Made by a program: the position numbers and the translations under genes
Shown here: piece after piece, positions 1,443-23,554 of the stretch
Layout: the number at the start of each line of letters is the position of its first letter
Numbering within the stretch: the stretch's first letter is position 1
The notes under the pieces: model-generated
Told to the model about the DNA's origin: nothing
The model's input: the letters and a program-made list of their open reading frames with translations, nothing else
Databases searched by the model: none
Source of the DNA: an uncultured Burkholderiales bacterium
Lineage (GTDB): Bacteria > Pseudomonadota > Gammaproteobacteria > Burkholderiales > Usitatibacteraceae
Reading direction: 5' to 3'
Assembly (NCBI GenBank): GCA_964617435.1
Contig: CAZTYC010000001.1
Span: 859-38,185 of the forward strand
DNA: 37,327 nt

Positions 1443-1528
1443 CCTTGCGTCTCCCGGCGGGTGTCGTGGCTTACGGCTGACTTGAATCCGCAGTCTAAAC
1501 GCGCTTCGGCGCTATAGTTGTCGCCGCA

Positions 1529-2239: not shown

Positions 2240-2469
2240 TTCCCTCACGATGTTTTCGGAGCGCCGTGCGCGACCACATCAACATGGTGCCGTCGCAAGT
2301 GCCGCACACGAAATGGCACGACGGACTAGCTCTCGCCGGCTTGCCGCACTCTGAAAATAGTTGCGGGATTGTTCACAAAGACACGTGATCGCGCGCTTTC
2401 GTTGGCGCTGCCGATGCACGATCGTATGCTCGACTCCCATCTGTTTCCGGGACTGAAAGTGATCGGGGC

Positions 2470-9200: not shown

Positions 9201-12200
9201 CGGCACAAAGGTAACGCCGGACGGCAGGGTCCCGCTGACCGACAGCACCGGTGGCAGGTTGCCTGTTGCCGTCACGGTAAACGTGCCGTTGGCCAGCACC
9301 GAGAAACTGGTCGCATTCGCGCTGGTGAAGTTGGGTGCCACCAGGGCGGCGGTCGGGGTCGCAAGCACGGGCGGGCTGGAGTCCGGGCCGGTCAATGCGG
9401 CGGCATTGGTCGCCGTCACGGTGCAACTGTATTGGACCCCGTTGGTCAACCCGCCGACGGTGATGGGCGACGTCGCGCTGGTCCCGGAGCCGCTCGGCGA
9501 ACAGGTCGCCGAGTACTGCGTGATCGGGCTGCCGCCGGTGTTCGACGGCGGCGAGAAGGACAGGCTCGCCTGCATCACGCCCGCCACGCCCATGACTCCC
9601 GTGGGCGCACCGGGCGCGACGGCGCTGATGGTCACGTTCTGCGTCACCTGCAGCGCGGCGTTGTAATTGGCGTTGCCGCCCTGGTCGGCAGCGACGGTGC
9701 ACACCCCCGCGGCAACCGGCGTCACGTTCGTGCCCGCCACGGTGCACACGGACGGTGTGAGCGAACTGTAGGTGACCGTCAGGCCGGACGTGCTGCTCGC
9801 CAACGGGCTGACGGGGAAGCCGGCGCCGAAAGGCTGCGGACCGGATTGCGCGCCGAAAGTGATCGACTGCGCGGCCGGCGAGATGGTCACCTGCACGAGC
9901 TGCATGCCGGTGCCCCCCGGGTTGGTGGCCGACACGGTGACGTTGAAGACGCCCGCTTGCCCGGGTGTTCCGCTGATGAGGCCACTTGCGGTGTCGATGG
10001 TTACCCCCGCGCCGAGCGGGCTCGCGCCGTAACTCACCGGGGATTGCGTGGCCGAGATCTGGTAACTGAACGGCTGGCCAAAGACGCCATTGGCGGCCCC
10101 TGGACTGGTAATCGCAGGAGCCGGCGGCGTGGCCACATTGACCGTTACCGTGAAGGCATCGCCCAGCAACAACGGCGAAGAGCGGCGCCCGCGGTAGGTG
10201 AAGCTGTCCATTCCCGCAAAGCCCGGATTGGGCGTGTATGTGATGACCGTTCCGTTGAATGCCGACAAGGTACCGTTGGCCGGCTGGCTGACCACCTGCG
10301 CGGCATCAAACGCGACGCCGCCCAGATACAAGTGTTTCGGCAGGCCGACGTCGATGTCCACCGGCGTCACATATGCGGTGTTGGCGGTGATGGGCGACAG
10401 TTGATCGCGGATGTACTTCGCGATCTCGGAGAGTTCATTTGCGGTAAGCGCCTGGACCGCGCCATCGGCGAGCATCTCCGGCTGCACGGAGCGCACATAG
10501 GCAATGATGTTGCCGGTCGCGCCGGCGGCGTTGAGGCGGCCTGCATTTGGCGTGGCACCATGGCAACCGCTGCAGACCGCATTCCAAAGCACAGTCCCGC
10601 TGCGCAGGGTCGGCGTGGCCATCAGCGCGTTGGACTCCGCCCCCACCCCCTTGGAATTTTGCGCCGCCACCGTGCACGTGTAAGCGGTGTTGTTGGTTAG
10701 CCCTCCGACCACCACGGGTTGCGACGCGCCATTGGCGGTGACGCCGCCGGGATTGCAAGTCCCCCGGTAGCCCGTGACGGCGGCGCCGCCATCGCTGGCG
10801 GGCGGATCGAAGTACAGCCGGATCGTAGAGTCATTGGCCAGTGTGTCATTGAGAGTGGGCGCGCCGGGCGGCACCGCATTAATCGAAATGTTGGCGTTGA
10901 CGGAACTCGCCGCAAAGTAATTTTGGTCTCCCGGCTGCGCCGCGGTCACCGTGCAGATCCCGGCAGAAAGGATCGTGATATTGGTGCCCGCCGCCATGCA
11001 AACGCCGGGGGTGGCCGAGGTGTAGTCGATGGGCAGGCCAGACGTCGCACTGGCCAGCGGGCTGATCGCGAATGAACCGCCCTGGACGAATGGTTGCGCC
11101 GCTTGCGCAGGAAAGGCGATCGATTGCGCCGCCTTGCCGATGACCACGTTTTGCGTCACATCGGCGGCCGCAAGGTAAAGCGCGTTGCCGTCCTGCGACG
11201 CTTCGATGGTGCAGGTGCCCGCGCCGATGATCGTAACCGTCGTGCCGGCCACGCTGCAGGTCGAGGGCGTCAGCGATGCGTAGCCGACCGCGAGTCCGGA
11301 AGATGCCGACGCCGTCGGGCTGATCGCAAAGCTGCCGCCCGGGCTGTAGGTGCGGCTTGCCTGGGCCCCGAACGTGATCGATTGATTTCCCTTGTTGATC
11401 GAGAAACTGCGCGCCACCTGGGAAGCCGGGTTGTAGCTTGCGGTATAGGACAGGGACGCATTCGCTGAATTGGCGTTGATGGTGCAGGTGCCGACGCCAA
11501 CGGTCGTCAAGAGCGTGCCGGACACGGTGCAAACGGGCGACGTCGCGCTGGTGAACACGATGTTCGACGCAGCCAGGGTGCTATTGGGCGTGGCGATGGT
11601 CGCCGCGAGGTTGTAGGTCGGCGAGGCCGTGTACTGCTGGTCCGCAACGGCCGGGAACGTGATGGTGGGGCTGCCCTTTGCGACGCTGAACGACAGCGTC
11701 TGCGTGGGGCACGGCGGCAACGTACCGCACTGCGAATTGTCCGCCTTCAACGTCAATGAGTAGGAACCCACGGATCCGGCCGCCGGAACTCCCCCCAACC
11801 AGGCGAGGCCGGGGGGAATCCTGGCGTTGGTGGCGTTGGTCTGGAACGTCATCCCGGACGGCAGCGACGATGCGTTGGTCAGCACCGCATTGGGACGCGC
11901 CGTGGTGACCACGACGAAGGTCTTCGAGGCTCCCACGTTGAAGGCATACGACGCGGGCGGCAACGTCGCCGCACTTCTGAAGGTCGGTCCAATCGGCGTG
12001 GATATTGGCGTCACCGACGCGGGCGACGAAGGCGGGCTGACCCCGAAACTGTTGCTCGCCGTCACCGTGCACGAATACGCCACGCTGTTGACCAGATTGA
12101 GCACGACAATCGGCGAGTAAACCGTGGTTGAACTTCCCGTCCGCGTTGTTTGGCCGGCTGCCGTGCAGGTTGCCGTGTATGTCACGCCCGGACCATTGCC

Positions 12201-13649
12201 ATTTGCGCCGATCGGGATGGTGGCCCGGGTGTCCCCAGCGACAATGGCCGAGGTAATCAGCGGCTGAAGCGGTGTTTCGGTAAGCGAAATGTCGCCATTG
12301 ACATCCGCCGCAGGATTGAAATTCGCATTGCCGTTCTGCGACGCCTCGATGGTGCAGAGCCCGTTGTCGAGCATGGTGACCGTGTTGCTGGTCGTCCCCG
12401 GCGTGGTGCACACGGTGGGCGTCAACGAGGTGTAGGTCACCGCGAGACCGGACGACGCCGCCACGCCCGTCACGGAGAATGTGCCATTGAGCACGAAGGC
12501 CTTGTCGGACTGCGCCGGGAACGTAATGGACTGGTTGCCCTTGTTGATCGTGATCGAGCGGTTGACTGAAACCGCCGGGTTCCAGTCGCTGTTGCCGGGT
12601 TGCGCCGCGGTGATCGAGCAGTTGCCCACCGACACCATGTTCACCAGGGTGCCGGAGGATGGCTTGGTGCAAACGCCCGTCGAATTGGACGAATACACGA
12701 TGGCCAGTCCGGAGGAGGCGCTGGCCGCCGGACTCAGGCTGAAGGTTCCGCCATTCGAGAAATAGGGCATCACGACTTGCGAACCGAACGTGATGGTCTG
12801 GTTGCCCTTGTTGATCGTGATGCTGCGCGTGACGTCCGGCGCCGCGTTGTAGGTCGAGTTTCCGTTCTGGTTGGCGCGCAACGTGCAAGTGCCGGCGCCC
12901 TGCATGGTCACCGTGGTCCCGCTCACCGTGCAAACCGGCGTGGTATCGGACGTATAGGTGATGGCCAGCCCCGAGGTCGCGCTGGCCAGAGGGCTGACGG
13001 AGAATGTGGCGCCCGGAGAGTAGGTGCGCGGCGAGGTTTGCGCGCCAAACGTGATGGTCTGGTCCAGCTTCGGCACGGTGATGACGAAGTTGGCCGCGTG
13101 ATTCCATTCGACACCAACGCGTGCCGCCGCATACAAGGTGCGCGTGCCACCCACGGCAACGCTGCCGGGCATGGTGAACTTGAAGGAAAAGGTGGTTGCG
13201 CCGGACGCATCGGTGATCCGGTCGTCGGTTGAGTTGTGGGTCAGGTCGTCGTCCGGCTTTTGCAGGTAGATCGACGATTCGCTCAGGTTGTCTGAACTCG
13301 CCGCAATATTGACCCCGGCTTTCGAACTCGCCGCGCCGTTGGTGATACTGATCGTGTACGACCCTTGGGCCCCTGCAGCCAAATTCGCCGGTCCGGAAAT
13401 GGACACGCCCAACGTTGCATTGGGGCTGTGGCACGAACCGCATCCCGCGCCGCCATCCTTGTTGGTGCGCCCGGTGATGCCGCTGGAGTAGGCGTCTGCG
13501 TTTCCAACGGAAAATGCCGTGAGCAAGGCGGCAAGTGCCGCAAAACACCGGGGCACTCCGCTACCGTTGCCGGTTGAAGGCCGGTGATGCGATTCAACAG
13601 CCGCTTCCAACGATGATCCCTTCTGGCGCTTATTGTGGTCTAACGGCAT
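6204..13649 (-). CDS. Giant (2481 aa) secreted multi-domain protein: N-terminal CXXCH module, many two-Cys Ig-like repeats, FN3 domains, two embedded class-I cytochrome-c-like domains, cadherin-like and He_PIG-like Ig domains, and a C-terminal dockerin-like repeat pair
   Basis: The frame is uninterrupted and G/T/S/A/N-rich, typical of adhesins. It has a signal peptide (VPRCFAALAALLTAFSVGNADA) and CGSCH at aa 70-74. Repeats of the form QTITFGAQ...SGL..Y.S.TP.VCTV.G...G.C.I.A.Q.GN..Y recur. FN3-like modules follow the pattern PGAP....F.PP...GGS.I..Y...C. The cytochrome-like segments are LWNAVCSGCHG...MLADGAVQALTANELSEIAKYIRDQ and LWTSVCANCHA...MAISPPVQNLTQSELAAIAVFIRDQ. The C-terminus reads GDVNGTGKVTAADIAAVK...LDINASGTISAADVS. 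A strong SD (GGGGGAGA) precedes the ATG. Confidence 0.9.
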   Translation of the reverse strand: MPLDHNKRQKGSSLEAAVESHHRPSTGNGSGVPRCFAALAALLTAFSVGNADAYSSGITGRTNKDGGAGCGSCHSPNATLGVSISGPANLAAGAQGSYTISITNGAASSKAGVNIAASSDNLSESSIYLQKPDDDLTHNSTDDRITDASGATTFSFKFTMPGSVAVGGTRTLYAAARVGVEWNHAANFVITVPKLDQTITFGAQTSPRTYSPGATFSVSPLASATSGLAITYTSDTTPVCTVSGTTVTMQGAGTCTLRANQNGNSTYNAAPDVTRSITINKGNQTITFGSQVVMPYFSNGGTFSLSPAASASSGLAIVYSSNSTGVCTKPSSGTLVNMVSVGNCSITAAQPGNSDWNPAVSVNRSITINKGNQSITFPAQSDKAFVLNGTFSVTGVAASSGLAVTYTSLTPTVCTTPGTTSNTVTMLDNGLCTIEASQNGNANFNPAADVNGDISLTETPLQPLITSAIVAGDTRATIPIGANGNGPGVTYTATCTAAGQTTRTGSSTTVYSPIVVLNLVNSVAYSCTVTASNSFGVSPPSSPASVTPISTPIGPTFRSAATLPPASYAFNVGASKTFVVVTTARPNAVLTNASSLPSGMTFQTNATNARIPPGLAWLGGVPAAGSVGSYSLTLKADNSQCGTLPPCPTQTLSFSVAKGSPTITFPAVADQQYTASPTYNLAATIATPNSTLAASNIVFTSATSPVCTVSGTLLTTVGVGTCTINANSANASLSYTASYNPASQVARSFSINKGNQSITFGAQASRTYSPGGSFAISPTASASSGLAVGYASLTPSTCSVAGTTVTIIGAGTCTIEASQDGNALYLAAADVTQNVVIGKAAQSIAFPAQAAQPFVQGGSFAISPLASATSGLPIDYTSATPGVCMAAGTNITILSAGICTVTAAQPGDQNYFAASSVNANISINAVPPGAPTLNDTLANDSTIRLYFDPPASDGGAAVTGYRGTCNPGGVTANGASQPVVVGGLTNNTAYTCTVAAQNSKGVGAESNALMATPTLRSGTVLWNAVCSGCHGATPNAGRLNAAGATGNIIAYVRSVQPEMLADGAVQALTANELSEIAKYIRDQLSPITANTAYVTPVDIDVGLPKHLYLGGVAFDAAQVVSQPANGTLSAFNGTVITYTPNPGFAGMDSFTYRGRRSSPLLLGDAFTVTVNVATPPAPAITSPGAANGVFGQPFSYQISATQSPVSYGASPLGAGVTIDTASGLISGTPGQAGVFNVTVSATNPGGTGMQLVQVTISPAAQSITFGAQSGPQPFGAGFPVSPLASSTSGLTVTYSSLTPSVCTVAGTNVTPVAAGVCTVAADQGGNANYNAALQVTQNVTISAVAPGAPTGVMGVAGVMQASLSFSPPSNTGGSPITQYSATCSPSGSGTSATSPITVGGLTNGVQYSCTVTATNAAALTGPDSSPPVLATPTAALVAPNFTSANATSFSVLANGTFTVTATGNLPPVLSVSGTLPSGVTFVPATGVLSGLPASGTANASPYPLTFTATNATGTVMQSFTLTVAKVAQTISFANPGTQSYAQAPIPLAASSSSGLAVTLSSNTPAVCTVSGANLTTVAPGVCSITAAQAGNADYLAANDVTRAFTIAKAGQTITFSAQASPRNFSTTPFALSPVAFATSALPISYSTTTPAVCTMAGNNVNTLSAGVCTIAANQAGDANYNAATQVTQSVTIDAIAPGAPVIGVASGSDMAATLNFTPPSSAGGSAIATYTATCNPGGVTGNNSASPVTVGGLSNGTPYTCSVTATNQAGKTSGPSGSVMVTPTSANGSALWTSVCANCHAASPSGNQLNGAGSTATVLQHVRTAQPLMAISPPVQNLTQSELAAIAVFIRDQLPANAPSTSQNSPVQVDVASHIHLTGQAWSAFTDVEVVTPPTNGMLGTFAGTVATYTPNPGFAGIDSFTYRGKRTSPNVDGDPVQVTITVLPGAPSITSAATANGTFNAPFSYQILATGTPTSFGAAGLPTGLVLDTMTGAISGTAGAGGVFNATISATNAGGTGMAPLTLTIAPAAQTITFASQSPSSQSFVPGGPFPINPLASGGGSGNPVTYSSITSPVCTVSGTTVTMVFGGTCTIAANQAGNANYAAASQATQNVTITPVPPGMPVIGTATPGNAQAQVSFGVPASNGGSAIIDYTVTCTASGQTTRTGTAANGPITVTGLANNVTYSCSVTARNAAAANMGIGPASSALDVTPAAVTVPGAPTIGIPDELDGAASIVFSPPASNGGSAILGYTVTCNPGMKTASAAGSPILVSGLSNGVTYTCSVTAMNSAGTGAASATVDVTPFAPIALDRVESRKQHGGFAGILPLAVGVDVNGAYTVEPRVIGAGHQIVFVFTGSLGGNPGTVSVLDAAGMTYAGINASVVANGSEAVVTLANVPEATRLTVQLTNAGGSVNAAVAVGFLPGDVNGTGKVTAADIAAVKARSGNTPVDASNFKLDINASGTISAADVSTSKARAGRTIP
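6207..6380 (-). other. C-terminal dockerin-like duplicated Ca-binding segment of the giant protein
   Basis: GDVNGTGKVTAADIAAVKARSG...KLDINASGTISAADVSTSKA contains two D.N..G.....D loop-helix repeats, as in type I dockerins. An Ig/cohesin-like module (SRKQHGGFAGILPL...) precedes it. Confidence 0.6.
7010..9074 (-). repeat. Super-repeat copy B of the giant gene (approx. aa 1526-2210)
   Basis: It starts at AKVAQTISFANPG (about 9041-9080) and has the same module order as copy A. Boundaries are approximate. Confidence 0.7.
8250..8264 (-). other. CXXCH motif 3 (CANCH, aa 1796-1800) inside the second cytochrome-c-like domain
   Basis: Reverse complement TGC GCA AAC TGC CAT. It lies exactly 770 codons downstream of motif 2, in the same domain context. 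Confidence 0.65.
9340..11384 (-). repeat. Super-repeat copy A of the giant gene (approx. aa 756-1436): Ig-Ig-FN3-cytochrome c-cadherin-like-He_PIG-Ig-FN3
   Basis: The domain order is colinear with copy B, and the two CXXCH motifs are 2310 nt apart. The copies are diverged at the DNA level (protein-level repeat). Boundaries are approximate. Confidence 0.7.
10560..10574 (-). other. CXXCH motif 2 (CSGCH, aa 1026-1030) inside a class-I cytochrome-c-like domain
   Basis: Reverse complement TGC AGC GGT TGC CAT. A Met-containing segment and an amphipathic LSxxELxxIAxYI helix follow downstream, as in monohaem class I cytochromes c. Confidence 0.65.
13428..13442 (-). other. CXXCH haem-attachment motif 1 (CGSCH, aa 70-74) of the giant protein
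   Basis: The plus strand reads gtggcacgaaccgca, whose reverse complement TGC GGT TCG TGC CAC lies about 18 residues after the predicted signal-peptide cleavage site. Confidence 0.6.
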
Positions 13650-13664
13650 GTCTCCCCCTAGTCA

Positions 13665-13689
13665 GCACGCCCAAGGTTTTGGGGCGTGC
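13665..13689 (-). promoter_or_regulatory. Stable hairpin in the leader, just upstream of the SD of the giant gene
   Basis: GCACGCCCAAGGTTTTGGGGCGTGC forms 10 consecutive Watson-Crick pairs plus one G-U, with a 3-nt loop. It ends 15 nt from the ATG. No U-tract follows on either strand, so it is not a classical terminator. Confidence 0.45.
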
Positions 13690-13951
13690 CAACCCAATGC
13701 CGCAGTCTATTCCCGTGGCATTGCGACAAATAGTGAATTCCGCACCCATCCCGTGAATGCGGGGCGGGGCGCTCCCTGATGATGGAAAGGCTTGACCCTA
13801 GATCTGGAGCGGACTTTCAGCCAAAAATGCCCGGAAAAGCCCGTCTATCAAGGACTTTGACTTTCTTCTTCTGATCTGGCGCGACGCAGACGCGGACTGC
13901 TCAGTGACTCAGCCGCATCGGTCGAGGCGCGGCCTTCCGCCGTGGCATCCC

Positions 13952-14662
13952 CTAGTTTCGGGATTGCGCCGGCGCGCCGTTGCTCAGCGCGCCCCATTCA
14001 CCCGACCGGATCCGCGCCACCGGCACCGGTGGCCCATCCGCCTTGGGACGAAACACGATCACCTCACCCATGTCCATGAACAGCCGGTCCGTTCCGCCAT
14101 TGCCGTTCTGCATATGCCCCACCAGCAGCCGGTTTTTGCCCGGCGGCGGGACCGTGGCGATCAACCGGGCGCGGCCCTCGTGCAAGCGGTGATCCTCGCG
14201 CTTGGGATTCCGATGCAAATCTTCATGCGTTTCCACCGGGGCGACGTCGACCAGCCTGGCGGTTTCCCAGACGCGGCACACTTCGGAGGAGATGACCTTG
14301 TCGAAAGGAATCTCCAGCCGCCGCATTTCCTGGCCGATGCGGCGCGCTTCCTCGCGGCCGGACGCGGTCAGGTTACTTTTGTCGCACGTCGGCGTGACCT
14401 CGCCGGTTTCCGTGTGCCGCAGGTAAAGCACATATCCGCCACGCCGCAACTCCTCCAGCAGGGCCTTGCCGGAGAGTGCGGACGCCTCGTCCACTTGCGG
14501 AATGCGCGGCAGGCCCCCGGGAGGCGTGCCCGAAACTTGCGCCAATGCCTGCATGCCGGGTACCAGGAGTAACCAGCCGACGAGCAAGGTTGCAACGCGG
14601 CGATCGCGCGACCTGGCAGCGCAATGTGTTTCCGTCGAATGGCAATTCGCACGCCTGATCAT
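13952..14662 (-). CDS. Secreted histidine-phosphatase-superfamily protein, paralog 2
   Basis: Starting at Met 14662, the hydrophobic signal region is VATLLVGWLLLVPGMQALAQ. GGYVLYLRHT, SSEVCRVWETAR and VGHMQ follow, and the tail (EVIVFRPKADGPPVPVARIRSGEW) is shared with paralog 1 (EMIVFLPKAGNAVPVARIRREDW). The start codon is uncertain; the listed ORF extends to 14791. Confidence 0.7.
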   Translation of the reverse strand: MIRRANCHSTETHCAARSRDRRVATLLVGWLLLVPGMQALAQVSGTPPGGLPRIPQVDEASALSGKALLEELRRGGYVLYLRHTETGEVTPTCDKSNLTASGREEARRIGQEMRRLEIPFDKVISSEVCRVWETARLVDVAPVETHEDLHRNPKREDHRLHEGRARLIATVPPPGKNRLLVGHMQNGNGGTDRLFMDMGEVIVFRPKADGPPVPVARIRSGEWGALSNGAPAQSRN

Positions 14663-14853
14663 CAGCCAATCCCCTGTTTGCGGGTCAATATGACGTTGGC
14701 ATTTTGGCATCTTCCGGCGTAACATGACGTCGGCCCAACAGGTTGAGAGTTTGCCTGAGTACCTTGTTCCAGGCCATTGATTGCAATACAATTTTTTGCG
14801 CCCCAGATTTCGCGCTCGGCGCGCTCGTTGTCTTCCGGCAAAAAGGGAATCCT

Positions 14854-17800
14854 ATGGCCCCGAGTATTGGCGGCATCTTTTGGCTATGCAGGCAGGTGCG
14901 CTGGACCGCCCTGCTCTTCCTCGTTGCCCTGGCCGCGACCTTGTCATCGCATGAAGCGCGGGCGCAGTCGATCGCCGCCGGTGCCAACATCTGGGCCCCA
15001 TTCAATGCAATGACCAACCCCACCGGCCAAGGGTGTGGCGGCTGCCACGGCACTCCGCCGAGCCTGCCGCAAAAGAACGCGGGCAACGCAGTGGCCGTGT
15101 TCAACGCCGCCATTGCGGCGAATGCCGGTAATTTCATGGGCGCGTACTCGGGCATGAGCGGCACGGATCGCCAGAGCGTCGCGCTCTATATCGGCTCTTC
15201 CGGCGGAGTCACCGAATCGGCAAGCCACTCCGTGACCGTCAACTACGGCAGTTCTGGAAATCTGATCACGCCGCTTAACATCGGCGTGAGCTACACCAGT
15301 GCCAGCATGACCGGCCTCAACGGCGGCACCGTGCAGCAGATCGCCACCACGTCAGGCCCGACGCGCGGCACACTGGCATCGAGCACCCTGACCACCGCTG
15401 GCGCGACGTTCAGCTACAACCACACCGCGACGAATTGCACGGCAGATTCGATTACCTACCAAGGGTCCGGGGTTTCCGGATCGCTGACTCAAGCAAAAAC
15501 GGTCACGATCAACATCACCCCCCCCACCCCGCCGACAATTTCGAACTCGTCGGCAAACATCGCCTACAACTCGTCGATGTCCACCAATATTCCGCTGACC
15601 TTGGGCGGCGGCACGGCGACGTCGCTGATCGTCGGTGCGCTGTCCGGGGGGGCGGGTACGTTGAATGCCACCGGCACCACGCTGACCTACACCGCCAGTG
15701 CCAGCACATATGTGGCCTCCCAGACCGTCAGCGTGCAGGCGGTCGGGCCGTGCGCGACCTCCGCCGCGGCCACCATCACCATCAACGTCGCGGCTCCTCC
15801 GGTGCCGGTGATCACCAGCGCCAACATGGCTTCGGGCGTCGGCGGACAGGCATTCAGCTTCAATGTCACGGCGAGCAATGCGCCCACCGGTTTCGCGGCA
15901 TCCGGTTTGCCCGCGGGTCTGAGCATCAACCCGACGACGGGCGCCATCACCGGAACCCCGTCGGTGTCCGGCATGTTCACCGCCATGGTGACGGCCTCCA
16001 ACGGATCGGGCACAAGCACCGCGCAATCGCTGGCCATCAACGTCACGCTGGCCACGCCGGTGATCACCAGCACGCTCTCCGCGAACGCCACCTCGGGCTC
16101 GCCGTTCACCTACAACATCACCGCAAGCAACCTGCCGGCCAGTTTCAACGCCACCGGGTTGCCGACCGGGCTGATGATCAACACGAGCACCGGGGCGATC
16201 ACCGGGACGCCGGTGGTGGCCATGGCGGGCACCGTGGCGATCACATTGTCGGCCACCAACACTGCGGGGACCGGCACGGCGACGCTGATGCTCAACGTTT
16301 CGCTCAACGCGCCCACCATCACCAGCGCCAACACGGCCAGCGGCAATGTCGGCAGCGCATTCACGTTCAATGTGACCGCAACGGACTTCCCCTCTTCATA
16401 CGGCGCCACGGGATTGCCGGCAGGCTTGTCGATCAACACGATGACCGGGGTGATCTCGGGGACACCCACCTCGGCCGGCGTATCGATGGTCAACCTCACG
16501 GCCACCAACGGAGCGGGCACCGGAATGCAGACGCTCGTGATCACCATCACGCTCCTGCCACCGGTAGTGAGCAGCGGCGCGTCGGTGTCGGGAACGGTCA
16601 CGCAACCGGTGAGTTACCAAATCACGGCCTCGAATTCACCCACGTCCTTTGGTGCGTCCGGGCTGCCCGCAGGGCTGTCCGTCAATGCCATGACCGGCCT
16701 GATCAGCGGCTCACCGACGTCCACCGGGACCACGGTGGTGACTGTCTCCGCCACCAACGCCGCCGGCACGGGCACCAAGGCGGTCACTTTCTCAATCTCC
16801 AATTTCCCGGCGCCCACAATGGCGGGCGCCACGATCCAGGTGCCTTTTGGCGGGACCGGCACCGTGGACTTCTCGCTCTTGTCCGGCGGCAGCAACGTGA
16901 CCAGTTATGTGATCACGCAACCGGCCACCCGAGGCACGATCACCGTCAACGGCAACGTTGCAACTTACACGCCGCAGGCCGGATTCTTCGGCATGGATTC
17001 CTTTGGGGTGACCGCCATGGGCCCCGGCGGAACCTCCCAGCAGGGCCTCATCACGGTGATCGTTGGCACGCCGGCCGCGCCGACCGTCGCGGCGCGCAGC
17101 GTGACGGTGCCCTACAACACGCAAACGGTCATCAGCCTGACCGCCGCAGTCACGGGCGTGGCCACCAGCATTGCCATCACCACGCCTCCCGCCAACGGCA
17201 CGGCCACGGTGAGCGGGCTGACGGTCCTTTACAAGCCGAAGGCGGATTACTTCGGTGACGACAGTTTCGCGTACACCGCCACCGGGCCCGGCGGAACCTC
17301 GATGCCGGCCACCGTTTCCATCACCGTCGCCACGCAGGCGCCATCCGCCTCCGCCGTCAGTTTCGCGGTACCGGCCAACACCGCCACCACGATGGACCTC
17401 AAGCCATTCATCACCGGTTCGGCGATCACCGGGGTGCGGGTCACGGTGGAACCCAAGTTCGGCAAGTCTGCGGTCAATGGCACCAAGGTGGTCTACACGC
17501 CCAATGAGGATTACCTGGGTCCGGACAGCCTTTCCTACATCGCGTTTGGCAATGCCGGCACCTCGGCAGCCGCTGTCGTGACGATCACCGTCATGGGCGA
17601 TCGTCCCAATCCGCTCAAGTCCGGCACGGTGGGCAGCATTGTCAGTTCCCAGGCAGACACCGCCCAACGCAATGCCACGACGACGATCACGACACTCCAG
17701 ACCCGAAACGAGGCCCTGCGGCGTGGGGGCGAGGTGGCCGACGCCAGCCCGGCCCCGCGTGCGCCGCGAGCGCAAGGGAGGGTCGAAACCTCGCTTACCG

Positions 17801-19674
17801 AAGGCGTGACGGGTACCCCCGCCGATTCACGCGCTCGGCCAGTCAGTGCGACGGCGGCCCCCGCTGACGCCAAGGGCCTCCAGGGCACGTTGGCGCAAGC
17901 AGTGTCCTCGCGCAGCGTGGACCTCGCCAGCGTGGCCCAGGCGGCGAGCAGCGGGGCGGTCAGCCAGGCGCCGGATCGCAGCGTCGGCGCGGTGAATTGG
18001 TGGGCTGCGGGAACCGCCCAGTTCGGCAATCGCAAGGGCGATGGCTCGTTCTCGGGCAGCGAGTTCACCACCAGCGGCATGATGTTTGGCGTGGACAAGC
18101 GTTTCGCGCGCGATCTGGCGGCCGGCATCGCCGTCGGCTTCATGCGCGACAACACTACGCTTGGCACGGACGGCTCCGCGAACAAGGCGCGGGCCGCCAC
18201 GCTGTCCCTCTATGGCAGCTACCAGCCTACGCGCGACACGTTCCTCGACGGGTTGCTCGGTTACGGCCGGCTCAACTTCACGTCGCGCCGCGCCATCGCG
18301 GCCAACGGAAGCATTGCGGAAGCCGATCGGGACGGAACCCAGTTCTTCGCGTCGGTCGCGGGCGGGTACGAAAAGCGCGAAAACGGCGTGCTGTGGTCGC
18401 CCTACGCGCGCCTCGACTACGCTTCCAACCGGCTCGACCAGGCCACGGAAAACAACGCCGGGCTGTATTCGTTGACCTACGGTTCGTTCACCCAGCCCTC
18501 GCTGCAGGGCGTCGTCGGCGTGCGCACCGAATCGGTCCATCGCACCAGCTACGGCGGGGCGAGCCCGCGGGCGCGCTTGGAATTCAGGCACGAATTCCAG
18601 GCGAACCGGGATACGAGCGTCGCGTACGCGGATCTGCCCGGCACGCGGTACGCACTGGTCAGCGCCCAGACGCTGCGCAATGCGATCGTGGCGTCCGTCG
18701 GATCGGATTTCCAGTTCAGTCGCGGCCTGACGGTCGGCATCGACTACCAGGTCACCCACGTGTTCAACAAGGACAGCAACCAGGGCTTGCGCCTGACGAT
18801 CACGCAGCCGCTCGACGGCAAGGGCAGCCCGCTGTTCTTCACGTCGCTGCCGACGACGCCGGCCAAGCCCAAGGATTACCAGGCCGATGCCGGCTTCATG
18901 TTCGACACCAACGTGACGCGCGCCAAGGCCGGGCCGGACAAGCTGTCCGACCGGATCTACTCGGTGAACACCAGCAAGAGCGAACTGTTCACCTTCGAAG
19001 ACCGCGAGAACATCCGCGCCACGGTGACCGTCCTTGCCGGGGCCGAGAAGTTCGACCGCTTCTCGGGGCTCGACCGCGCGGTTGCCAGCATCGAAGCCGA
19101 CGGCAAGTACAAGACTTCGGCGGAGTTCGACGCCTACACGTTCGGCGCCACGCTTTCGGTGGCCGGCGACCAATACCAATCAAAACTCCGCCGCGGCTAC
19201 CGGGCCAGTTTCACTCTATCGGCGCGTCAACAGCTCACCGATTTGATCGGTGTCTTCGCCGCGGCCTCGTACAACCAGCGCTGGGCGAACAGCAAGGTGT
19301 TCGACAACCGGTTCTCCGCGTTCCGCCTCAATGCCGACTATCAATGGAACGCGAACGACACCCTGTATGTAACCGGCGAGTTCCGCAAGGGGCACAGCGT
19401 GTCGTCGGGCAGCGGGTCTCTGGAGGACCTGGCGGTGGCCCAGATCTTTGTCGACGATGACGCTTTCCCGCACCGAGACTTCAACGCCTACCGGTTCGAA
19501 GCCAGGACCTGGATATCCACCGTGGGATACAACATGGGCTTCGGGCCGCGCCACGCGCTGGACCTGTCCTGGCGTCGCGCGCAGTCCACGCCGACCTTCC
19601 GGCCGAGTTACGCCACGTCTGCGAAGAGTTACATCGCAGACCAGTATTCGATCGTTTACCTGATTCGCTTCTAA
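14854..19674 (+). CDS. Large autotransporter-type outer-membrane protein (~1606 aa): N-terminal CXXCH cytochrome-c-like head, Ig-like repeats, autotransporter beta-domain and an extra C-terminal beta-rich extension
   Basis: ATG 14854 is preceded by AAAAGGGA. The signal peptide is WTALLFLVALAATLSSHEARA. GQGCGGCHG lies at aa 61-65. The passenger carries four ~84-aa He_PIG-like and three cadherin-like repeats. The autotransporter beta-domain runs NWWAAGTAQFG...GVDKRF...LSLYGSY...GLLGYGRLNFTSRR...EFRHEF. About 285 further residues end in YSIVYLIRF, a C-terminal aromatic OMP signal. Confidence 0.88.
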   Translation: MAPSIGGIFWLCRQVRWTALLFLVALAATLSSHEARAQSIAAGANIWAPFNAMTNPTGQGCGGCHGTPPSLPQKNAGNAVAVFNAAIAANAGNFMGAYSGMSGTDRQSVALYIGSSGGVTESASHSVTVNYGSSGNLITPLNIGVSYTSASMTGLNGGTVQQIATTSGPTRGTLASSTLTTAGATFSYNHTATNCTADSITYQGSGVSGSLTQAKTVTINITPPTPPTISNSSANIAYNSSMSTNIPLTLGGGTATSLIVGALSGGAGTLNATGTTLTYTASASTYVASQTVSVQAVGPCATSAAATITINVAAPPVPVITSANMASGVGGQAFSFNVTASNAPTGFAASGLPAGLSINPTTGAITGTPSVSGMFTAMVTASNGSGTSTAQSLAINVTLATPVITSTLSANATSGSPFTYNITASNLPASFNATGLPTGLMINTSTGAITGTPVVAMAGTVAITLSATNTAGTGTATLMLNVSLNAPTITSANTASGNVGSAFTFNVTATDFPSSYGATGLPAGLSINTMTGVISGTPTSAGVSMVNLTATNGAGTGMQTLVITITLLPPVVSSGASVSGTVTQPVSYQITASNSPTSFGASGLPAGLSVNAMTGLISGSPTSTGTTVVTVSATNAAGTGTKAVTFSISNFPAPTMAGATIQVPFGGTGTVDFSLLSGGSNVTSYVITQPATRGTITVNGNVATYTPQAGFFGMDSFGVTAMGPGGTSQQGLITVIVGTPAAPTVAARSVTVPYNTQTVISLTAAVTGVATSIAITTPPANGTATVSGLTVLYKPKADYFGDDSFAYTATGPGGTSMPATVSITVATQAPSASAVSFAVPANTATTMDLKPFITGSAITGVRVTVEPKFGKSAVNGTKVVYTPNEDYLGPDSLSYIAFGNAGTSAAAVVTITVMGDRPNPLKSGTVGSIVSSQADTAQRNATTTITTLQTRNEALRRGGEVADASPAPRAPRAQGRVETSLTEGVTGTPADSRARPVSATAAPADAKGLQGTLAQAVSSRSVDLASVAQAASSGAVSQAPDRSVGAVNWWAAGTAQFGNRKGDGSFSGSEFTTSGMMFGVDKRFARDLAAGIAVGFMRDNTTLGTDGSANKARAATLSLYGSYQPTRDTFLDGLLGYGRLNFTSRRAIAANGSIAEADRDGTQFFASVAGGYEKRENGVLWSPYARLDYASNRLDQATENNAGLYSLTYGSFTQPSLQGVVGVRTESVHRTSYGGASPRARLEFRHEFQANRDTSVAYADLPGTRYALVSAQTLRNAIVASVGSDFQFSRGLTVGIDYQVTHVFNKDSNQGLRLTITQPLDGKGSPLFFTSLPTTPAKPKDYQADAGFMFDTNVTRAKAGPDKLSDRIYSVNTSKSELFTFEDRENIRATVTVLAGAEKFDRFSGLDRAVASIEADGKYKTSAEFDAYTFGATLSVAGDQYQSKLRRGYRASFTLSARQQLTDLIGVFAAASYNQRWANSKVFDNRFSAFRLNADYQWNANDTLYVTGEFRKGHSVSSGSGSLEDLAVAQIFVDDDAFPHRDFNAYRFEARTWISTVGYNMGFGPRHALDLSWRRAQSTPTFRPSYATSAKSYIADQYSIVYLIRF
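15034..15048 (+). other. CXXCH motif (CGGCH) at the N-terminus of the autotransporter passenger
   Basis: TGT GGC GGC TGC CAC encodes aa 61-65 counted from ATG 14854. The sequence continues ...NFMGAYSGMSGTDRQSVALYIGS, which resembles the Met-ligand and C-terminal helix region of small cytochromes c. Confidence 0.55.
15799..16809 (+). repeat. Four tandem ~84-aa He_PIG-type (putative Ig) repeats
   Basis: The pattern P.ITS......G..F.....AS..P..F.A.GLP.GL.IN..TG.I.GTP....G.......ATN..GT recurs four times back to back. Confidence 0.8.
16810..17613 (+). repeat. Three tandem cadherin-like/bacterial Ig repeats
   Basis: The pattern ...P..G...V.G..V.YTP...Y.G.DSF.Y.A.G.GGTS....V.I.V recurs three times. 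The same module type occurs after each cytochrome domain of the 2481-aa protein. Confidence 0.75.
17992..18813 (+). other. Autotransporter beta-barrel domain
   Basis: The ~275 aa show alternating beta-strand patterning and the hallmarks listed for the parent CDS. Confidence 0.8.
18814..19671 (+). other. Additional ~285-aa C-terminal beta-rich extension of unknown family, ending in an OMP beta-signal
   Basis: A Pro/Lys linker (DGKGSPLFFTSLPTTPAKPKDYQ) is followed by alternating hydrophobic/polar strands (YTFGATLSVAGD, YRASFTLSARQQ, FRLNADYQWN, TLYVTGEFRKG, ISTVGYNMGF, LDLSWRR). The terminal sequence is YSIVYLIRF. Confidence 0.5.
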
Positions 19675-19685
19675 AGGATCCGACC

Positions 19686-21638
19686 GTGAAACGTACTCCC
19701 ATAGCCTCCTTTGGACTGTGTTTCGCGTTGTCCGCGCTCCTCGCGGGCTGCGGAGGCGGCGGCCAGGGCGAAACGACACCCGATGTCGTGCCCGGCCAGA
19801 AAGCCACGCCCCCGACCACCGGGCCCAACCTGTTCCTGCTGTTTCCGAACCCCCAGAAGCAGGCCGACGGCACGATCGAAACCAATACCGCCGCATATAC
19901 GCAGTCTTACTACGAGGCCATCGACCCGAACAATGAACGGGACACGCTGACCAAGTACAAGCAGAAGAATGGTTTTGGCAGCGGCACGGGGGAAGAAGTC
20001 ACGGTCGTGTTCGGCGACCAGCGCGACTTGGGTTACGGACGGCGGATGAACGCGCGCCGCAATCCGGACGGCACCCTCGCCTTCTTTGTCGAAAACTACC
20101 TGATTCAGGCGGGCGAGGGCTACCAGTACTCCCCCGCCAACCTGGAAGCCGCCATCGTGCGCGATCCAAAATGGCTGGTCGGCATCAACGCGATTGAATT
20201 CACGCCCGGGCCCAACGGCGGCGCGCCGTTCCCGAAGTTCTACAACTTCGTGGCGGGCACCGAGCAACGCGCAACCTTCGTGGATCTGGACGGCCGCGGC
20301 GGCAAGGCCATGCCCGGGCCGTGCATCAGCTGCCACGGCGGGCGCGGCGACGCCTTGATGCCGGCGGACGCCAGCGGGAAGCGCAAGTTCAATCTGGTTC
20401 AGAACGGCGTGTCGCTGCAGCGCGGCGACGTACAGGCGCGCCTGCACCCGTTTGAGCCGGATGTGTTCGGCTTCTCGACCACCACGGGTTTCAGCCGCGC
20501 GGAGCAGGAGGCCAGCATCAAGAAGATCAATACCTGGATCCTGTGCAGTTATCCGATCCACAGCGCATCCACCGCGCCGGAAGACCAGTGCCGGCGTCCT
20601 GCGGGCGCGAGCGAATGGCTGGCTCCGCAGGCCGATCTCATCAAGGCCGCATACGGCGGCACCGGATTGCCGCGCGCCAATTGGGATGACACCTACGTGC
20701 CGCCGGGATGGGAATCGGTGGGGCAATCCTCGCTCTACCGCGACGTGGTCGCCACGTCCTGCCGCACCTGCCATTCCCAGCGCGGCACCATCCTCCAGGA
20801 TGACATTTCTTTCCCCACCTACGCCAAGTTCGCCGCGTATTCCGACCGCATCAAGGCGCATGTGATCGACCGCGGCAACATGCCGCTCGCGCAGATCGTC
20901 TACAACGCGTTCTACGGCAACAACCGCCAGGAAACCGTCGGCGCATTCCTGGCCCAGCAGGGGTTGAACGTCAAGGATTCGGCCGGCGCGACGCTCAAGC
21001 CCGGCCGTCCGGTCGCGGATCCGGGCCCGTCGAGGGTCGTCCGCCAGGGGGCCTCGCCCCTGTCCGCGTCGAACAGCCTCTACGCCTCGTCCTACGCTTG
21101 GAGCATCCTGTCCGGGCCTTCCGGCGGCGCGACGATTTCGGCCCCCACCTCTGAGAACACCACGTTCAACGCCTCGCTCAACGGCACCTATGTGGTGCGA
21201 TTGGTGGCCTCGGCCGGCAGCGTGCAAAGCGCCCCAGTGGACATCACCATCGTCGTCGACAATTCACTGGCGAAATCGCCCGCAGACATCCGGTTTGCCG
21301 ACATCAAGGCCGTGCTTCAATCGGCGGAGGCGGGGTGCACGAGTTCGAATTGCCACTCCGCGGGGGGCACGCAATCCGCGCCGGTGTTCTACACCAACTA
21401 CGATCGCAACGGCGATGGCGTGCAGAACAGCATCGACGAGGACTGGTTCCATGCGGAGGTCCGCAGCCGGATCAATTTCACGGACATCGTGTCCAGCCCG
21501 CTGCTGCGCAAGCCTTCGGGAAATCACCACGCCGGCCTGCTGCGTCCCGGATTCGACGCCACGGCGGCCCCCGGCCAGTCCGCGCGCGCCAACTTTGACC
21601 TGTTCCAGAACTGGATCCTGAACGGCGCCCCAAAGTGA
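19686..21638 (+). CDS. Lipoprotein (650 aa) with two CXXCH motifs and one CX4CH motif; putative haem lipoprotein of unknown family
   Basis: The GTG start lies 11 nt after the autotransporter stop, with SD AAAGGA. The lipobox is LLAG-C (Cys22 codon 19749-19751), followed by a GGGGQ linker. The motifs are CISCH (20322-20336), CRTCH (20760-20774) and CTSSNCH (21336-21356). The last is followed by SSPLLRKPSGNHHAG, reminiscent of planctomycete-type cytochrome c modules. Confidence 0.8.
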   Translation: MKRTPIASFGLCFALSALLAGCGGGGQGETTPDVVPGQKATPPTTGPNLFLLFPNPQKQADGTIETNTAAYTQSYYEAIDPNNERDTLTKYKQKNGFGSGTGEEVTVVFGDQRDLGYGRRMNARRNPDGTLAFFVENYLIQAGEGYQYSPANLEAAIVRDPKWLVGINAIEFTPGPNGGAPFPKFYNFVAGTEQRATFVDLDGRGGKAMPGPCISCHGGRGDALMPADASGKRKFNLVQNGVSLQRGDVQARLHPFEPDVFGFSTTTGFSRAEQEASIKKINTWILCSYPIHSASTAPEDQCRRPAGASEWLAPQADLIKAAYGGTGLPRANWDDTYVPPGWESVGQSSLYRDVVATSCRTCHSQRGTILQDDISFPTYAKFAAYSDRIKAHVIDRGNMPLAQIVYNAFYGNNRQETVGAFLAQQGLNVKDSAGATLKPGRPVADPGPSRVVRQGASPLSASNSLYASSYAWSILSGPSGGATISAPTSENTTFNASLNGTYVVRLVASAGSVQSAPVDITIVVDNSLAKSPADIRFADIKAVLQSAEAGCTSSNCHSAGGTQSAPVFYTNYDRNGDGVQNSIDEDWFHAEVRSRINFTDIVSSPLLRKPSGNHHAGLLRPGFDATAAPGQSARANFDLFQNWILNGAPK

Positions 21639-21665
21639 CGGGTGAAGAGTCGTTGTGAATGGACG

Positions 21666-21697
21666 AAAAAAAAACGGCGCCCCGCGCCGTTTTTTTT
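21666..21697. terminator. Bidirectional rho-independent terminator between convergent genes
   Basis: AAAAAAAAACGGCGCCCCGCGCCGTTTTTTTT has a GC stem (CGGCGC/GCGCCG) with a CCC loop, flanked by an A9 run and a T8 run. Confidence 0.9.
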
Positions 21698-21711
21698 CGC
21701 CAACCGCGCAA

Positions 21712-22443
21712 TCAATAGTTGCGTCGCGGTGCGTTGTACGCGTCCTTGCCGAACGCGAACGGCGTGGTGCGACCCACCAGCGATTCAATCAGCGCAAGCT
21801 CCAGGTCCGTGTGGTTGACGAAGGGCGCGTTGCTGATCGCCTTGTTCCCATCCTTGCCGATATACACCGGCCGGTCGTGCTGTGTGGCGGTGATGGTTTC
21901 CTTGGCTTCGGGCTTGGCATTGGCACTGACCTCGGTGGTGCCATAGCAGGTGCAGAAATAGCTCTGCTCCTCCTCGGCCTCCACGTAAAACCCAGTTCCG
22001 CGGATACCGATGGTGGCGGTCGGCGTCCGCAACCGCATGGGCTGGTTGCGCGAAACGCTGAGCAGGGCACCGGTCAGCATGCGCAGGCCGGACACGATGA
22101 GCGAATCGGCCTTCTTCTCCGCCTCGATCACGACATTGCTGTTGGCACGCAGGATCATGGCCTGGGTGTTGACCACAAAGACCAGCTCGCTGTCCTTGGC
22201 GGTCTTGACCGTGTCCCCGGGGTTGACCCTGGTGCCCAGGGTGGCCGGCTTGTCGTTGACCGTTGCAGTGCCGGAAATGCGGTAGATCGACTGGCCCGCG
22301 GGAAGGCGGCCGGGCTTGCTCCCGAAGATGTTGGCGACCTGCGCAAGTGCGGCGGGTGAAGACGCCCCCAGCAAGCCGGCCCCCAGCATCTGGATGAGAA
22401 TGCGCCGGCGCGGGTCTTCACGGTCTTTGTCGATCAGGTACAT
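21712..22443 (-). CDS. Tat-signal periplasmic FecR-domain protein, tandem paralog 1
   Basis: 243 aa. The twin-arginine signal is DPRRRILIQMLGAGLLGASSPAALA. The FecR-like core is GQSIYRISGTATVNDKPATLGTRVNPGDTVKT...GIRGTGFYVE. A conserved FCTCYG is present, and the SD is GGAG. Confidence 0.85.
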   Translation of the reverse strand: MYLIDKDREDPRRRILIQMLGAGLLGASSPAALAQVANIFGSKPGRLPAGQSIYRISGTATVNDKPATLGTRVNPGDTVKTAKDSELVFVVNTQAMILRANSNVVIEAEKKADSLIVSGLRMLTGALLSVSRNQPMRLRTPTATIGIRGTGFYVEAEEEQSYFCTCYGTTEVSANAKPEAKETITATQHDRPVYIGKDGNKAISNAPFVNHTDLELALIESLVGRTTPFAFGKDAYNAPRRNY

Positions 22444-22485
22444 GAGGTCTCCAGATTTGGGAAATTGAAGGGCGGCGGCCCGGAC

Positions 22486-23223
22486 TCAGTAGTTCCTGCG
22501 CGGCGCGTTGTACGCATCCTTGCCGAACACAAACGGTGTGCTGCGGCCGACCAGCGATTCGATCAGCGCCAATTCAAGGTCCGTGTGGTTGATGAACGGA
22601 CCATTGACAATGCCACTGCCCTTGGACGCATCGTTGGTTATATAGACCGGCCGGTCGTGCTGCGTGGCGGTGATGGTTTCCTTGGCCTCCGGATTGGCGG
22701 CGGACGCCACCTCGGTGGCGCCGTAGCAGGTGCAGAAGTAGGTGCGGTCCTCTTCGGCCTCCATGTAGAACCCGGTGCCGCGGATGCCGACCGTGGCCGT
22801 AGGCGTGCGCACGCGCATCGGCTGGTTGCGGGAAACGCTGAGCAAGGCACCGGTCAGCATGCGCAGGCCGGAGACCACGAATGAATCGGCCTTTTTTTCC
22901 GACTCGATGACCACGTTGCTGTTGGCACGCAGGATCATGGCTTGCGTGTTGACTACAAAAACCAGTTCGCTGTCCTTGCCGGTCTTGACGGTATCCCCGG
23001 GATTGACCTTGGTGCCCAGTGCCGCAGGCTTGTCGTTGACGCTCGCCGTGCCGGAAATCCGGTAGATGGACTGGCCCGCCGGCAACTTGGTCGGACGCGA
23101 GCCAAAAATGCTGGCGACCTGCGCCAGCGCAGCCGGGGAGAGGCTGCCCAGCGCTCCAAGGGTGAGCATCTGGATCAGGGTACGGCGGCGGGGATCATCG
23201 CGGTTCTTGTCGATCAAATACAT
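22486..23223 (-). CDS. Tat-signal periplasmic FecR-domain protein, tandem paralog 2
   Basis: Using Met 23223 (MYLIDKNRDDPRRRTLIQML...), the protein aligns end to end with paralog 1. By eye, roughly four fifths of residues are identical. The SD is GGAG, 7 nt upstream. The listed ORF starts 4 codons earlier. Confidence 0.85.
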   Translation of the reverse strand: MYLIDKNRDDPRRRTLIQMLTLGALGSLSPAALAQVASIFGSRPTKLPAGQSIYRISGTASVNDKPAALGTKVNPGDTVKTGKDSELVFVVNTQAMILRANSNVVIESEKKADSFVVSGLRMLTGALLSVSRNQPMRVRTPTATVGIRGTGFYMEAEEDRTYFCTCYGATEVASAANPEAKETITATQHDRPVYITNDASKGSGIVNGPFINHTDLELALIESLVGRSTPFVFGKDAYNAPRRNY

Positions 23224-23554
23224 TGTGGGCTCCAAGAGCCGGGGAATACCGGCATCGGGCGTCAGGGGTGAGGTACGAATCGGCCGGTTTCCCGGATGCA
23301 GGCGATCTTAGCATTTCCGTTTCAACAGGCCATCCCTCATCCGCGCCAAGGAATTCCCTGATTCGCGGACGCTTTCGGGGCGGCGAGACCCCGGCCTTCG
23401 CCAAGCCGCCATCCCTTGGTCGTGGGAATGTTCCCTTCACCGGCAATCCCCTGCGTTAAACTCGCCGGAATGCCCGGACGCGGCTGTGCCGGGGCATGCC
23501 GCAATTCCAACAAGATCCGGCAGCACCAACGCCACACGTCATCGGGGAGCACTC

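Follow-up and report, generated by a model that had tools for sequence, protein, structure and literature searches.

Autotransporters (ATs) are by definition proteins with a C-terminal barrel, and it is the last strand of this barrel that passes to the outer membrane assembly machinery. Those of type Va, such as NalP, EspP, BrkA, and EstA, consist of a signal peptide, a repeat passenger, and a full-length PF03797 barrel of 12 strands. Porin-cytochrome conduits (MtrCAB and PioAB/MtoAB) and Cyc2 have barrels of 16–26 strands in which the cytochrome is enclosed. Here we analyzed a stretch of 37,327 nucleotides (nt) from an uncultured Burkholderiales bacterium of the family Usitatibacteraceae (contig CAZTYC010000001.1 of assembly GCA_964617435.1; the whole stretch is referred to as the window), in which 14854–19674 encodes a genuine single-chain, two-barrel type Va AT. 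This protein is an AT fused to an independent second outer membrane barrel that has conserved partners of its own. It shares with the type Va ATs the features listed above, but its AT barrel is internal, lacks a terminal aromatic residue, and is followed by a linker and an unrelated second barrel, and its passenger differs in starting with a c-type heme-binding motif.

Outer membrane proteins with several barrels per chain have been predicted as a class, and the main text of Solan et al. (2021; PMC8346858) reports examples such as YjbH/GfcD (12-12) and PagP-LptD (8-26), with a median inter-barrel linker of 22 ± 13 residues. The protein described here resembles the multi-barrels of that main text in having two complete, non-overlapping barrels per chain, in a linker of 22 amino acids (aa) that equals the reported median, and in being a lineage-specific fusion of possibly complementary barrels; no AT-containing architecture is named there (PMC8346858). 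Our literature search found no description of cytochrome-bearing ATs or of AT-containing multi-barrels. Since the second barrel has no existing model, barrel searches based on known families would miss this fusion. ATs and multi-barrel outer membrane proteins are known kinds of protein; what is new here is the barrel family and the conserved gene module, both of them undescribed.

Parts of the arrangement recur in other described systems. Slam is described as having a TPR domain in the periplasm in addition to 14 membrane segments (PMC13230968), and the known cargo of type XI secretion systems (T11SS) end in an 8-stranded barrel domain of the TbpBBD or lipoprotein C type (PMC12282271). As at Slam/T11SS loci, an outer membrane barrel gene is here directly followed by a lipoprotein gene, and a few weak SlipAM matches occur among the relatives of the barrel. 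In common with FecA-FecR signaling and with the LysM-FecR/CHASE2 kinase operons (PMC5192318), the locus combines an outer membrane barrel, a periplasmic FecR-domain protein, and an inner membrane sensor, which here is a CHASE2 protein. Unlike in FecA-FecR, however, the FecR-like protein is a soluble protein with a twin-arginine translocation (Tat) signal and not a membrane anti-sigma factor, and no TonB-dependent transducer, STN domain, or extracytoplasmic function (ECF) sigma factor was found in the window open reading frames (ORFs) scanned. With MtrCAB, PioAB/MtoAB, and Cyc2 the locus shares the placement of heme proteins beside or fused to an outer membrane barrel, and the second-barrel family also occurs in the iron-cycling lineages Gallionella, Sideroxyarcus, and Rhodoferax. 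The preliminary description of this locus had suggested a Cyc2-like topology as one alternative, but the protein does not support it: the heme motif lies at aa 61 and the first barrel begins at about aa 1049, approximately 980 residues apart, and both barrels are modeled with 12 strands, so that neither can sheath a cytochrome. Judging from known barrel sizes, a 12-stranded barrel should be too narrow for a folded cytochrome to be sheathed or passed, which speaks against a porin-cytochrome conduit as well as against a straightforward secretin for holo-cytochromes. In addition, no periplasmic multiheme gene adjoins the AT gene among the window ORFs scanned.

Two Barrels in a Single Chain

The reading frame is open without interruption from 14743 to 19674, and translation from the ATG at 14854 gives a protein of 1606 aa. 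Its N-terminus, read directly, has a charged n-region, a hydrophobic stretch (LLFLVALAATL), and a cleavage-like ARA/Q, together forming a putative Sec signal peptide, LLFLVALAATLSSHEARA/QS (the slash marks the cleavage-like position here and below). The stalk of immunoglobulin (Ig)-like repeats is about 900 aa long. The autotransporter beta-domain is complete (PF03797 in Pfam, aa 1049–1299, profile positions 1–255 of 255, E = 2.6e-45), and its final strand, ...NQGLRLTITQP-L (aa 1319/1320), has no terminal aromatic residue and is followed by 286 more residues. The AT barrel is therefore internal to the chain and is not the C-terminal barrel with an aromatic recognition end that characterizes type Va.

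An extension of about 285 residues beyond the AT barrel had been noted previously, and translation and Pfam confirm that it is real: the AT barrel ends without an aromatic residue, a Pro/Lys-rich linker follows, and the only outer membrane protein signal (YLIRF) belongs to the extension. Its length can be refined to a linker of 22 aa and a barrel of 265 aa, which ends ...QYSIVYLIRF directly before the TAA stop at 19672–19674 and provides the sole aromatic C-terminus of the protein. By general barrel topology, this end would act as the signal for the outer membrane assembly machinery. The same reasoning would place the linker in the periplasm, since an even strand number puts both ends of each barrel on the periplasmic side, and a 22-aa periplasmic linker is topologically sound.

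Strand counts and the separation of the barrels were judged from the secondary structure of AlphaFold2 (AF2) models together with Foldseek matches. For the extension alone (17 aligned sequences), AF2 gave a predicted local distance difference test score (pLDDT) of 76.6 and a predicted template modeling (TM) score of 0.74, with 12 long strands after a disordered stretch of 39 residues. The model of aa 1001–1606 (51 aligned sequences; pLDDT 86.8) has 12 strands in each half, and the strand boundaries of the second barrel are identical in the isolated and the tandem model. Helices are predicted ahead of the AT barrel at aa 1008–1019 and 1024–1031, but pLDDT is below 50 for aa 1001–1041. In Foldseek searches, the first half of the tandem model matched NalP, BrkA, and EspP over approximately 280 columns with target-normalized TM scores of 0.72–0.82. 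The extension alone, searched against PDB, matched the EstA AT barrel, FapF, a COG4313 channel, KdgM, NanC, and CymA at TM scores of about 0.4–0.67, that is, outer membrane barrels of 12–14 strands and no specific family.

Overall, the models support two separate barrels with 12 predicted strands each rather than one large barrel. The preliminary description had left the choice between a larger single barrel and two tandem barrels, of which the 12 + 12 strands in AF2 and the Foldseek matches favor the latter. A single 24-stranded barrel was rejected, as 22-stranded TonB-dependent receptors align at a TM score of about 0.2 with a root mean square deviation of 17–19 Å, compared with about 0.8 for AT barrels. 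A tandem duplication of the AT barrel was also rejected: in hhalign the second barrel and the AT barrel are unrelated (probability 0.1%), and given this lack of relationship between the profiles the second barrel is not a duplicate.

A Large Unannotated Family of Outer Membrane Barrels

Pfam and NCBIfam scans of the second barrel of the window at E ≤ 10 returned no meaningful match, and a sequence search of PDB with the barrel profile gave a chance-level match only. Relatives of the extension were found in 111 genomes when one genome per species was scanned, nearly all of them metagenome-assembled Betaproteobacteria, and 80 loci were taken for comparison. Carriers of the second barrel include Usitatibacteraceae, Burkholderiales, Gallionella, Rhodoferax, Sideroxyarcus, Casimicrobiaceae, and Nitrotoga. 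The closest locus (L004), also from Usitatibacteraceae, is approximately 78–80% identical to the window at the nucleotide level across the AT, lipoprotein, FecR-like, and cyclase genes.

Tandem barrels had been regarded as rare, a view that the homologs do not bear out for this clade. At about 55 of the 80 loci a single ORF of 843–2318 aa encodes an AT barrel and, in frame after it, the extension, and at about 22 the extension is a free-standing gene. A profile search recovered 1160 representative clusters at E ≤ 1e-3 (833 at E ≤ 1e-10); among the best 150 of the 1160, the second barrel is C-terminal in every case, 96 are fused, and 54 are free-standing, which also answers the earlier question of whether the extension ever occurs as a separate gene. 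In all 96 fused representatives an AT barrel lies directly upstream of the second barrel, and the spacing between the two varies by only about 12 residues. The free-standing forms have signal peptides of their own (e.g., MLRGSALGLVVLLGICATASA/QD in P0013), carry no more than about 40 further residues ahead of the barrel, and, among the representatives, have no AT within 8 kb. In a neighbor-joining tree of the barrel domain the fused and free-standing forms are intermixed, so the fusion has arisen or been lost repeatedly, with an AT as the partner every time.

Among 120 relatives listed from a 90%-identity database, none has a Pfam domain on the barrel region, and the names, where given, are “hypothetical protein” or a generic autotransporter label. 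The second barrel thus represents a large unannotated family of outer membrane proteins, mostly from Betaproteobacteria, and its fusion to ATs is not rare in this clade.

Two oddities among the relatives concern a reductase. In one lineage (L001 and L084–L086), the free-standing barrel directly follows a Fer2/FAD/NAD ferredoxin-reductase-type gene, and P0007, in which that reductase is joined to an AT-barrel remnant and the second barrel, looks chimeric or frameshifted.

A Cytochrome-Like Head at the Tip of the Passenger

The motif CGGCH at aa 61–65 (nt 15034–15048) is the only CxxCH in the AT. The heme-motif head recognized in the preliminary description is conserved, as a C(x2-4)CH motif directly follows the signal peptide in 48 of the 52 long fused homologs, in variants that include CGGCH, CSGCH, CSAACH, and CTTSGCH. 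About 30 homologs share further features after the motif, namely a conserved N-(A/G)-x-N, a Met some 30 residues later, and an AAY(I/L) helix. The conservation pattern resembles that of small class I cytochromes, with putative heme attachment. Over 55 aa, the head also shares 27% of its residues with a Cytochrome_CBB3 domain in a neighboring 2481-aa protein (E = 0.009 in a single comparison).

The motif alternates between CxxCH, Cx3CH, and Cx4CH at homologous positions in the AT heads of L008–L013, L021, L031, L034, L067, L069, L075, and L079. The same switching is seen at the third site of the downstream lipoprotein (aa 551–557, nt 21336–21356).

Conserved Partners of the Second Barrel

The second barrel is the constant element of a module that further comprises an optional three-heme lipoprotein, a Tat-signal FecR-like protein, and often a CHASE2 cyclase. 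The lipoprotein begins at a GTG (19686) and has a lipobox (LLAG/C22) and three heme-binding motifs, CISCH at aa 213, CRTCH at aa 359, and CTSSNCH at aa 551. Pfam detects only a PKD-like domain and weak cytochrome signals in it, and a PDB search with the lipoprotein profile matched the PKD domain only. That a lipoprotein gene starts 11 nt downstream of the AT gene had been reported from the window; this adjacency is strongly conserved: in about 80% of loci, those with free-standing barrels included, the lipoprotein gene comes directly after the barrel, usually at a distance of 11 nt. Three free-standing barrels have a lipoprotein homolog 10–12 nt downstream that is 50–55% identical to that of the window. 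Where the lipoprotein gene is complete (52 loci), the modal spacer is 11 nt, a lipobox is present in 47, and exactly three heme-binding motifs are present in 50, the third ranging between CxxCH and Cx4CH. The lipoprotein is missing from 18 loci, which retain the barrel and its FecR-like partner.

The FecR-like protein, not the lipoprotein, is the most constant partner of the barrel. It is encoded just downstream of the barrel in 65 of the 67 loci with room for it, whether the lipoprotein is present or absent, and is often followed by the CHASE2 cyclase; the preliminary description had overlooked both. The alignment shows a DPRRRxLIQ Tat signal, an invariant YFCTCYG, invariant H189 and H211, and a conserved C-terminal APRR(D/N)Y. 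Identity to three aligned homologs is 53–66%, which exceeds the 33–50% typical of the barrel and its free-standing relatives. In about 20 loci, the window among them, the FecR-like gene is in turn followed by a gene for a CHASE2 cyclase. Genes beyond the module differ from locus to locus, and the pairing of barrel and FecR-like gene therefore exceeds what inherited synteny would give.

The Cys and His residues and the Tat signal of the FecR-like protein could reflect a cofactor or metal site.

The heme-motif head of the AT and the heme lipoprotein tend to occur together: both are present in 30 cases, neither in 10, the lipoprotein alone in four, and the head alone in none (nominal Fisher p = 4e-7). 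The four ORFs with a lipoprotein only have no recognizable N-terminal head, and at least one of them (L014) looks truncated, since it lacks a signal peptide as well. A clade of shorter fused proteins of 830–1000 aa (L040, L045, L048, L052, L058, L064, L065, L070, L082, and L083) has passengers that begin AECGGxxxCI and contain one Big_9 domain and no heme motif. No lipoprotein gene is present at these loci, and the FecR-like gene lies 8–200 nt past the barrel.

Possible Roles of the Second Barrel

We consider it slightly more probable than not (roughly 0.55) that the protein is an AT fused to the outer membrane component of a conserved envelope redox or signaling module. The extension would then not be part of the AT secretion machinery but would belong to the module, and the fusion would keep the surface stalk and its heme head beside the module's own partners. 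Since the head and the heme lipoprotein seem to be gained and lost together, electrons or a redox signal would most likely pass between the two. The second barrel would most likely serve as a docking or tether point in the membrane for the lipoprotein and the FecR-like protein, and docking could feed a periplasmic pathway from the FecR-like protein to the CHASE2 cyclase, or a short electron relay. The module may accordingly act as an envelope-spanning redox sensor or relay, with no porin-sheathed electron conduit.

Several observations weigh against this interpretation. The evidence that ties the barrel to its partners is gene context, and AF2 is possibly biased toward single barrels of known size. 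The barrel contains no recognizable STN-like signaling domain. It is not obvious how electrons would reach the cell from a single heme at the tip of a long Ig-like stalk, and the head itself falls below the cytochrome thresholds of Pfam and NCBIfam (best matches DUF1924, E = 0.022, and TIGR01904, E = 0.041). The 10 cases with neither head nor lipoprotein are essentially one clade in the barrel tree, so the Fisher p value overstates the independence of the counts. The barrel and the FecR-like gene are usually transcribed convergently and are therefore not one operon. Finally, 5 of 61 relatives have weak SlipAM matches, which gives some probability to a translocon role.

Such a role, proposed in the preliminary description, is the best of the alternatives, although we regard it as unlikely. 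A divergent DUF560-type barrel would act as a Slam/T11SS-like translocon that moves the heme lipoprotein to the surface, near the head displayed by the AT. The conserved position of the lipoprotein gene 11 nt downstream in about 80% of loci, those with free-standing barrels included, agrees with it, and the co-occurrence of head and lipoprotein finds its simplest explanation in a shared location on one side of the membrane. SlipAM/DUF560 (PF04575) was also the commonest weak match in a member-by-member Pfam scan of 61 relatives, with a best E of 8.2e-5 among its five hits, and the fused homolog L066 reached 19.9 bits, the cutoff being 22. However, the generic barrel families OMP_b-brl (4), DUF2490 (3), and Porin_4 (2) gave comparably weak matches in the same scan, the window copy has no SlipAM match at E ≤ 10, and a distant link of the second barrel to DUF560 is thus conceivable but not demonstrated. 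The barrel is modeled with 12 strands, compared with 14 in Slam, and its free-standing copies lack a TPR domain. Pfam found no 8-stranded cargo barrel domain in the lipoprotein, and a folded holo-cytochrome should not be able to cross a 12-stranded barrel. Moreover, the 18 loci in which barrel and FecR-like gene persist although the lipoprotein is absent argue against a dedicated lipoprotein translocon. An identification as Slam/DUF560 is therefore weakly supported at most.

A more elaborate version, which we consider doubtful, would combine a translocon with the redox module. The two-barrel AT, the three-heme lipoprotein, the FecR-like protein, and the CHASE2 cyclase would together form an unrecognized redox-sensing or electron-relay apparatus, in which a cytochrome exported by the type V route with its heme covalently loaded would sit on a stalk of about ten Ig domains, the second barrel, as a very distant DUF560 relative, would bring the lipoprotein to the surface, and the redox state would be reported inward to the cyclase.

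Similarly, it seems improbable that the second barrel is a specific channel of 12 strands (like NanC/KdgM, Tsx, or COG4313) that admits a small ligand for the lipoprotein or FecR-like protein in the periplasm. Structural matches to COG4313 (TM scores of 0.51–0.59) and to KdgM and NanC (0.64–0.67, target-normalized), the many conserved charged residues (R, D, and E) in strands and loops, and the existence of free-standing barrels with no periplasmic domain are all consistent with a channel. These matches are generic, however, with query-normalized TM scores of 0.4–0.5, and long loops that are conserved, DDNVTRA and VxDDAF, may block the lumen. A solute channel would also leave unexplained why the barrel is repeatedly fused behind ATs, and ATs only, and why it is so tightly coupled to a lipoprotein start 11 nt away.

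Slightly less probable still is an assembly helper, in which the second barrel would supply a C-terminal signal and a foothold for insertion of the AT barrel and secretion of the heme-loaded passenger. The AT barrel ends without a terminal aromatic residue, YLIRF in the second barrel is the only such signal, and the fusion partner is invariably an AT; on the other side, 54 of the 150 best representatives are free-standing and lack an AT within 8 kb, short ATs without a heme head also bear the second barrel, the FecR-like protein and the lipoprotein, and not the AT, are what accompanies the barrel as conserved partners, and in our own reading the last AT strand (N-Q-G-L-R-L-T-I) still resembles a hydrophobic recognition motif. 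A frameshift or mis-assembly joining two genes is ruled out by the homolog survey, as the in-frame fusion with its near-constant linker recurs in dozens of independent assemblies at 37–95% identity.

Whichever role the second barrel has, these proteins form a subclass that is widespread in nature and whose AT barrel is internal, and they offer a test of how the assembly machinery handles tandem barrels and internal recognition signals. How the machinery inserts an AT barrel that is not C-terminal is a puzzle posed by these proteins, which also test whether passenger secretion needs a free barrel C-terminus. Export of a holo-cytochrome by type V secretion is a further question, raised by the conserved heme motif at the tip of the passenger. 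Read as the outer membrane component of an envelope redox or signaling module, the second barrel points to a candidate new module of this kind in environmentally important Betaproteobacteria, including iron-cycling lineages.

Gene Neighborhood

Table 1. Features of the two-barrel AT and of neighboring genes in the window.
Feature	Position	Strand	Basis
2481-aa secreted-looking protein	6204-13649	-	Pfam, NCBIfam, motif location
Signal-peptide-like N-terminus, aa 1-37 (...LSSHEARA/QS)	14854-14964	+	Read directly from translation
Small cytochrome-c-like head, aa 38 to ~135	14965-15258	+	Motif location, weak Pfam matches, homolog alignment
Passenger stalk, Ig-like repeats (He_PIG x4, Big_9 x3)	15259-17853	+	Pfam; NCBIfam tandem-95 repeat
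Helical linker (low confidence) and canonical 12-stranded AT barrel, last strand to aa 1319	17854-18810	+	PF03797, AF2, Foldseek
Inter-barrel linker, 22 aa, LDGKGSPLFFTSLPTTPAKPKD	18811-18876	+	AF2 secondary structure, translation
Second barrel, 12 predicted beta-strands, aa 1342-1606, and stop	18877-19674	+	AF2, Foldseek, profile searches
11-nt spacer aggatccgacc, contains AGGA	19675-19685	+	Sequence reading
650-aa lipoprotein, three heme-binding motifs and PKD-like domain	19686-21638	+	Pfam, motif location
243-aa FecR-domain protein, twin-arginine signal DPRRRILIQ	21712-22443	-	Pfam FecR E 9.3e-7, alignment
Tandem paralog of the FecR-like protein, 83% identical	22486-23235	-	Sequence comparison
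CHASE2 sensor and adenylate/guanylate cyclase	23486-25819	+	Pfam
CHASE2-PAS histidine kinase	26962-29391	-	Pfam
LysM-FecR protein	29402-31048	-	Pfam

The features of the AT and of the genes around it are listed in Table 1. A promoter and terminator scan of 13600–23500 gave nothing exceeding chance, and a tRNA scan found none.

Upstream of the AT gene, the 2481-aa protein is a giant repeat protein with single heme domains hundreds of residues apart. It has an N-terminal choice-of-anchor V domain with CGSCH, two Cytochrome_CBB3 domains (CSGCH at aa 1026 and CANCH at aa 1796) within arrays of fn3, He_PIG, and Big_9 domains, and a C-terminal dockerin. Homologs of its N-terminus or of its cytochrome domain are also encoded upstream of the AT in L005, L006, L007, and L017. 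Between this gene and the AT gene, a gene of the histidine-phosphatase family (13952–14791, minus strand) is divergent from the AT gene and overlaps an alternative TTG start at 14743; homologs of it lie upstream of the AT in L004, L006, L025, and L046.

At one of the loci with a free-standing barrel (L002), T2SSG, T2SSI, and T2SSC pseudopilin genes (positions 1–2008, minus strand) lie upstream of the barrel-lipoprotein pair on the opposite strand. These type II secretion genes, seen at this locus only, could bear on how the lipoprotein leaves the periplasm.

Downstream, the window contains three FecR-domain proteins and two CHASE2 proteins within 10 kb. The LysM-FecR and histidine kinase pair at 26962–31048 matches a LysM-FecR and CHASE2-kinase operon described in Burkholderia (PMC5192318). 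In addition, a Crp-type regulator that binds cyclic nucleotide monophosphates and a PAS-GGDEF diguanylate cyclase are encoded at 1529–3417 (plus strand) and are possible downstream elements of cyclase signaling.

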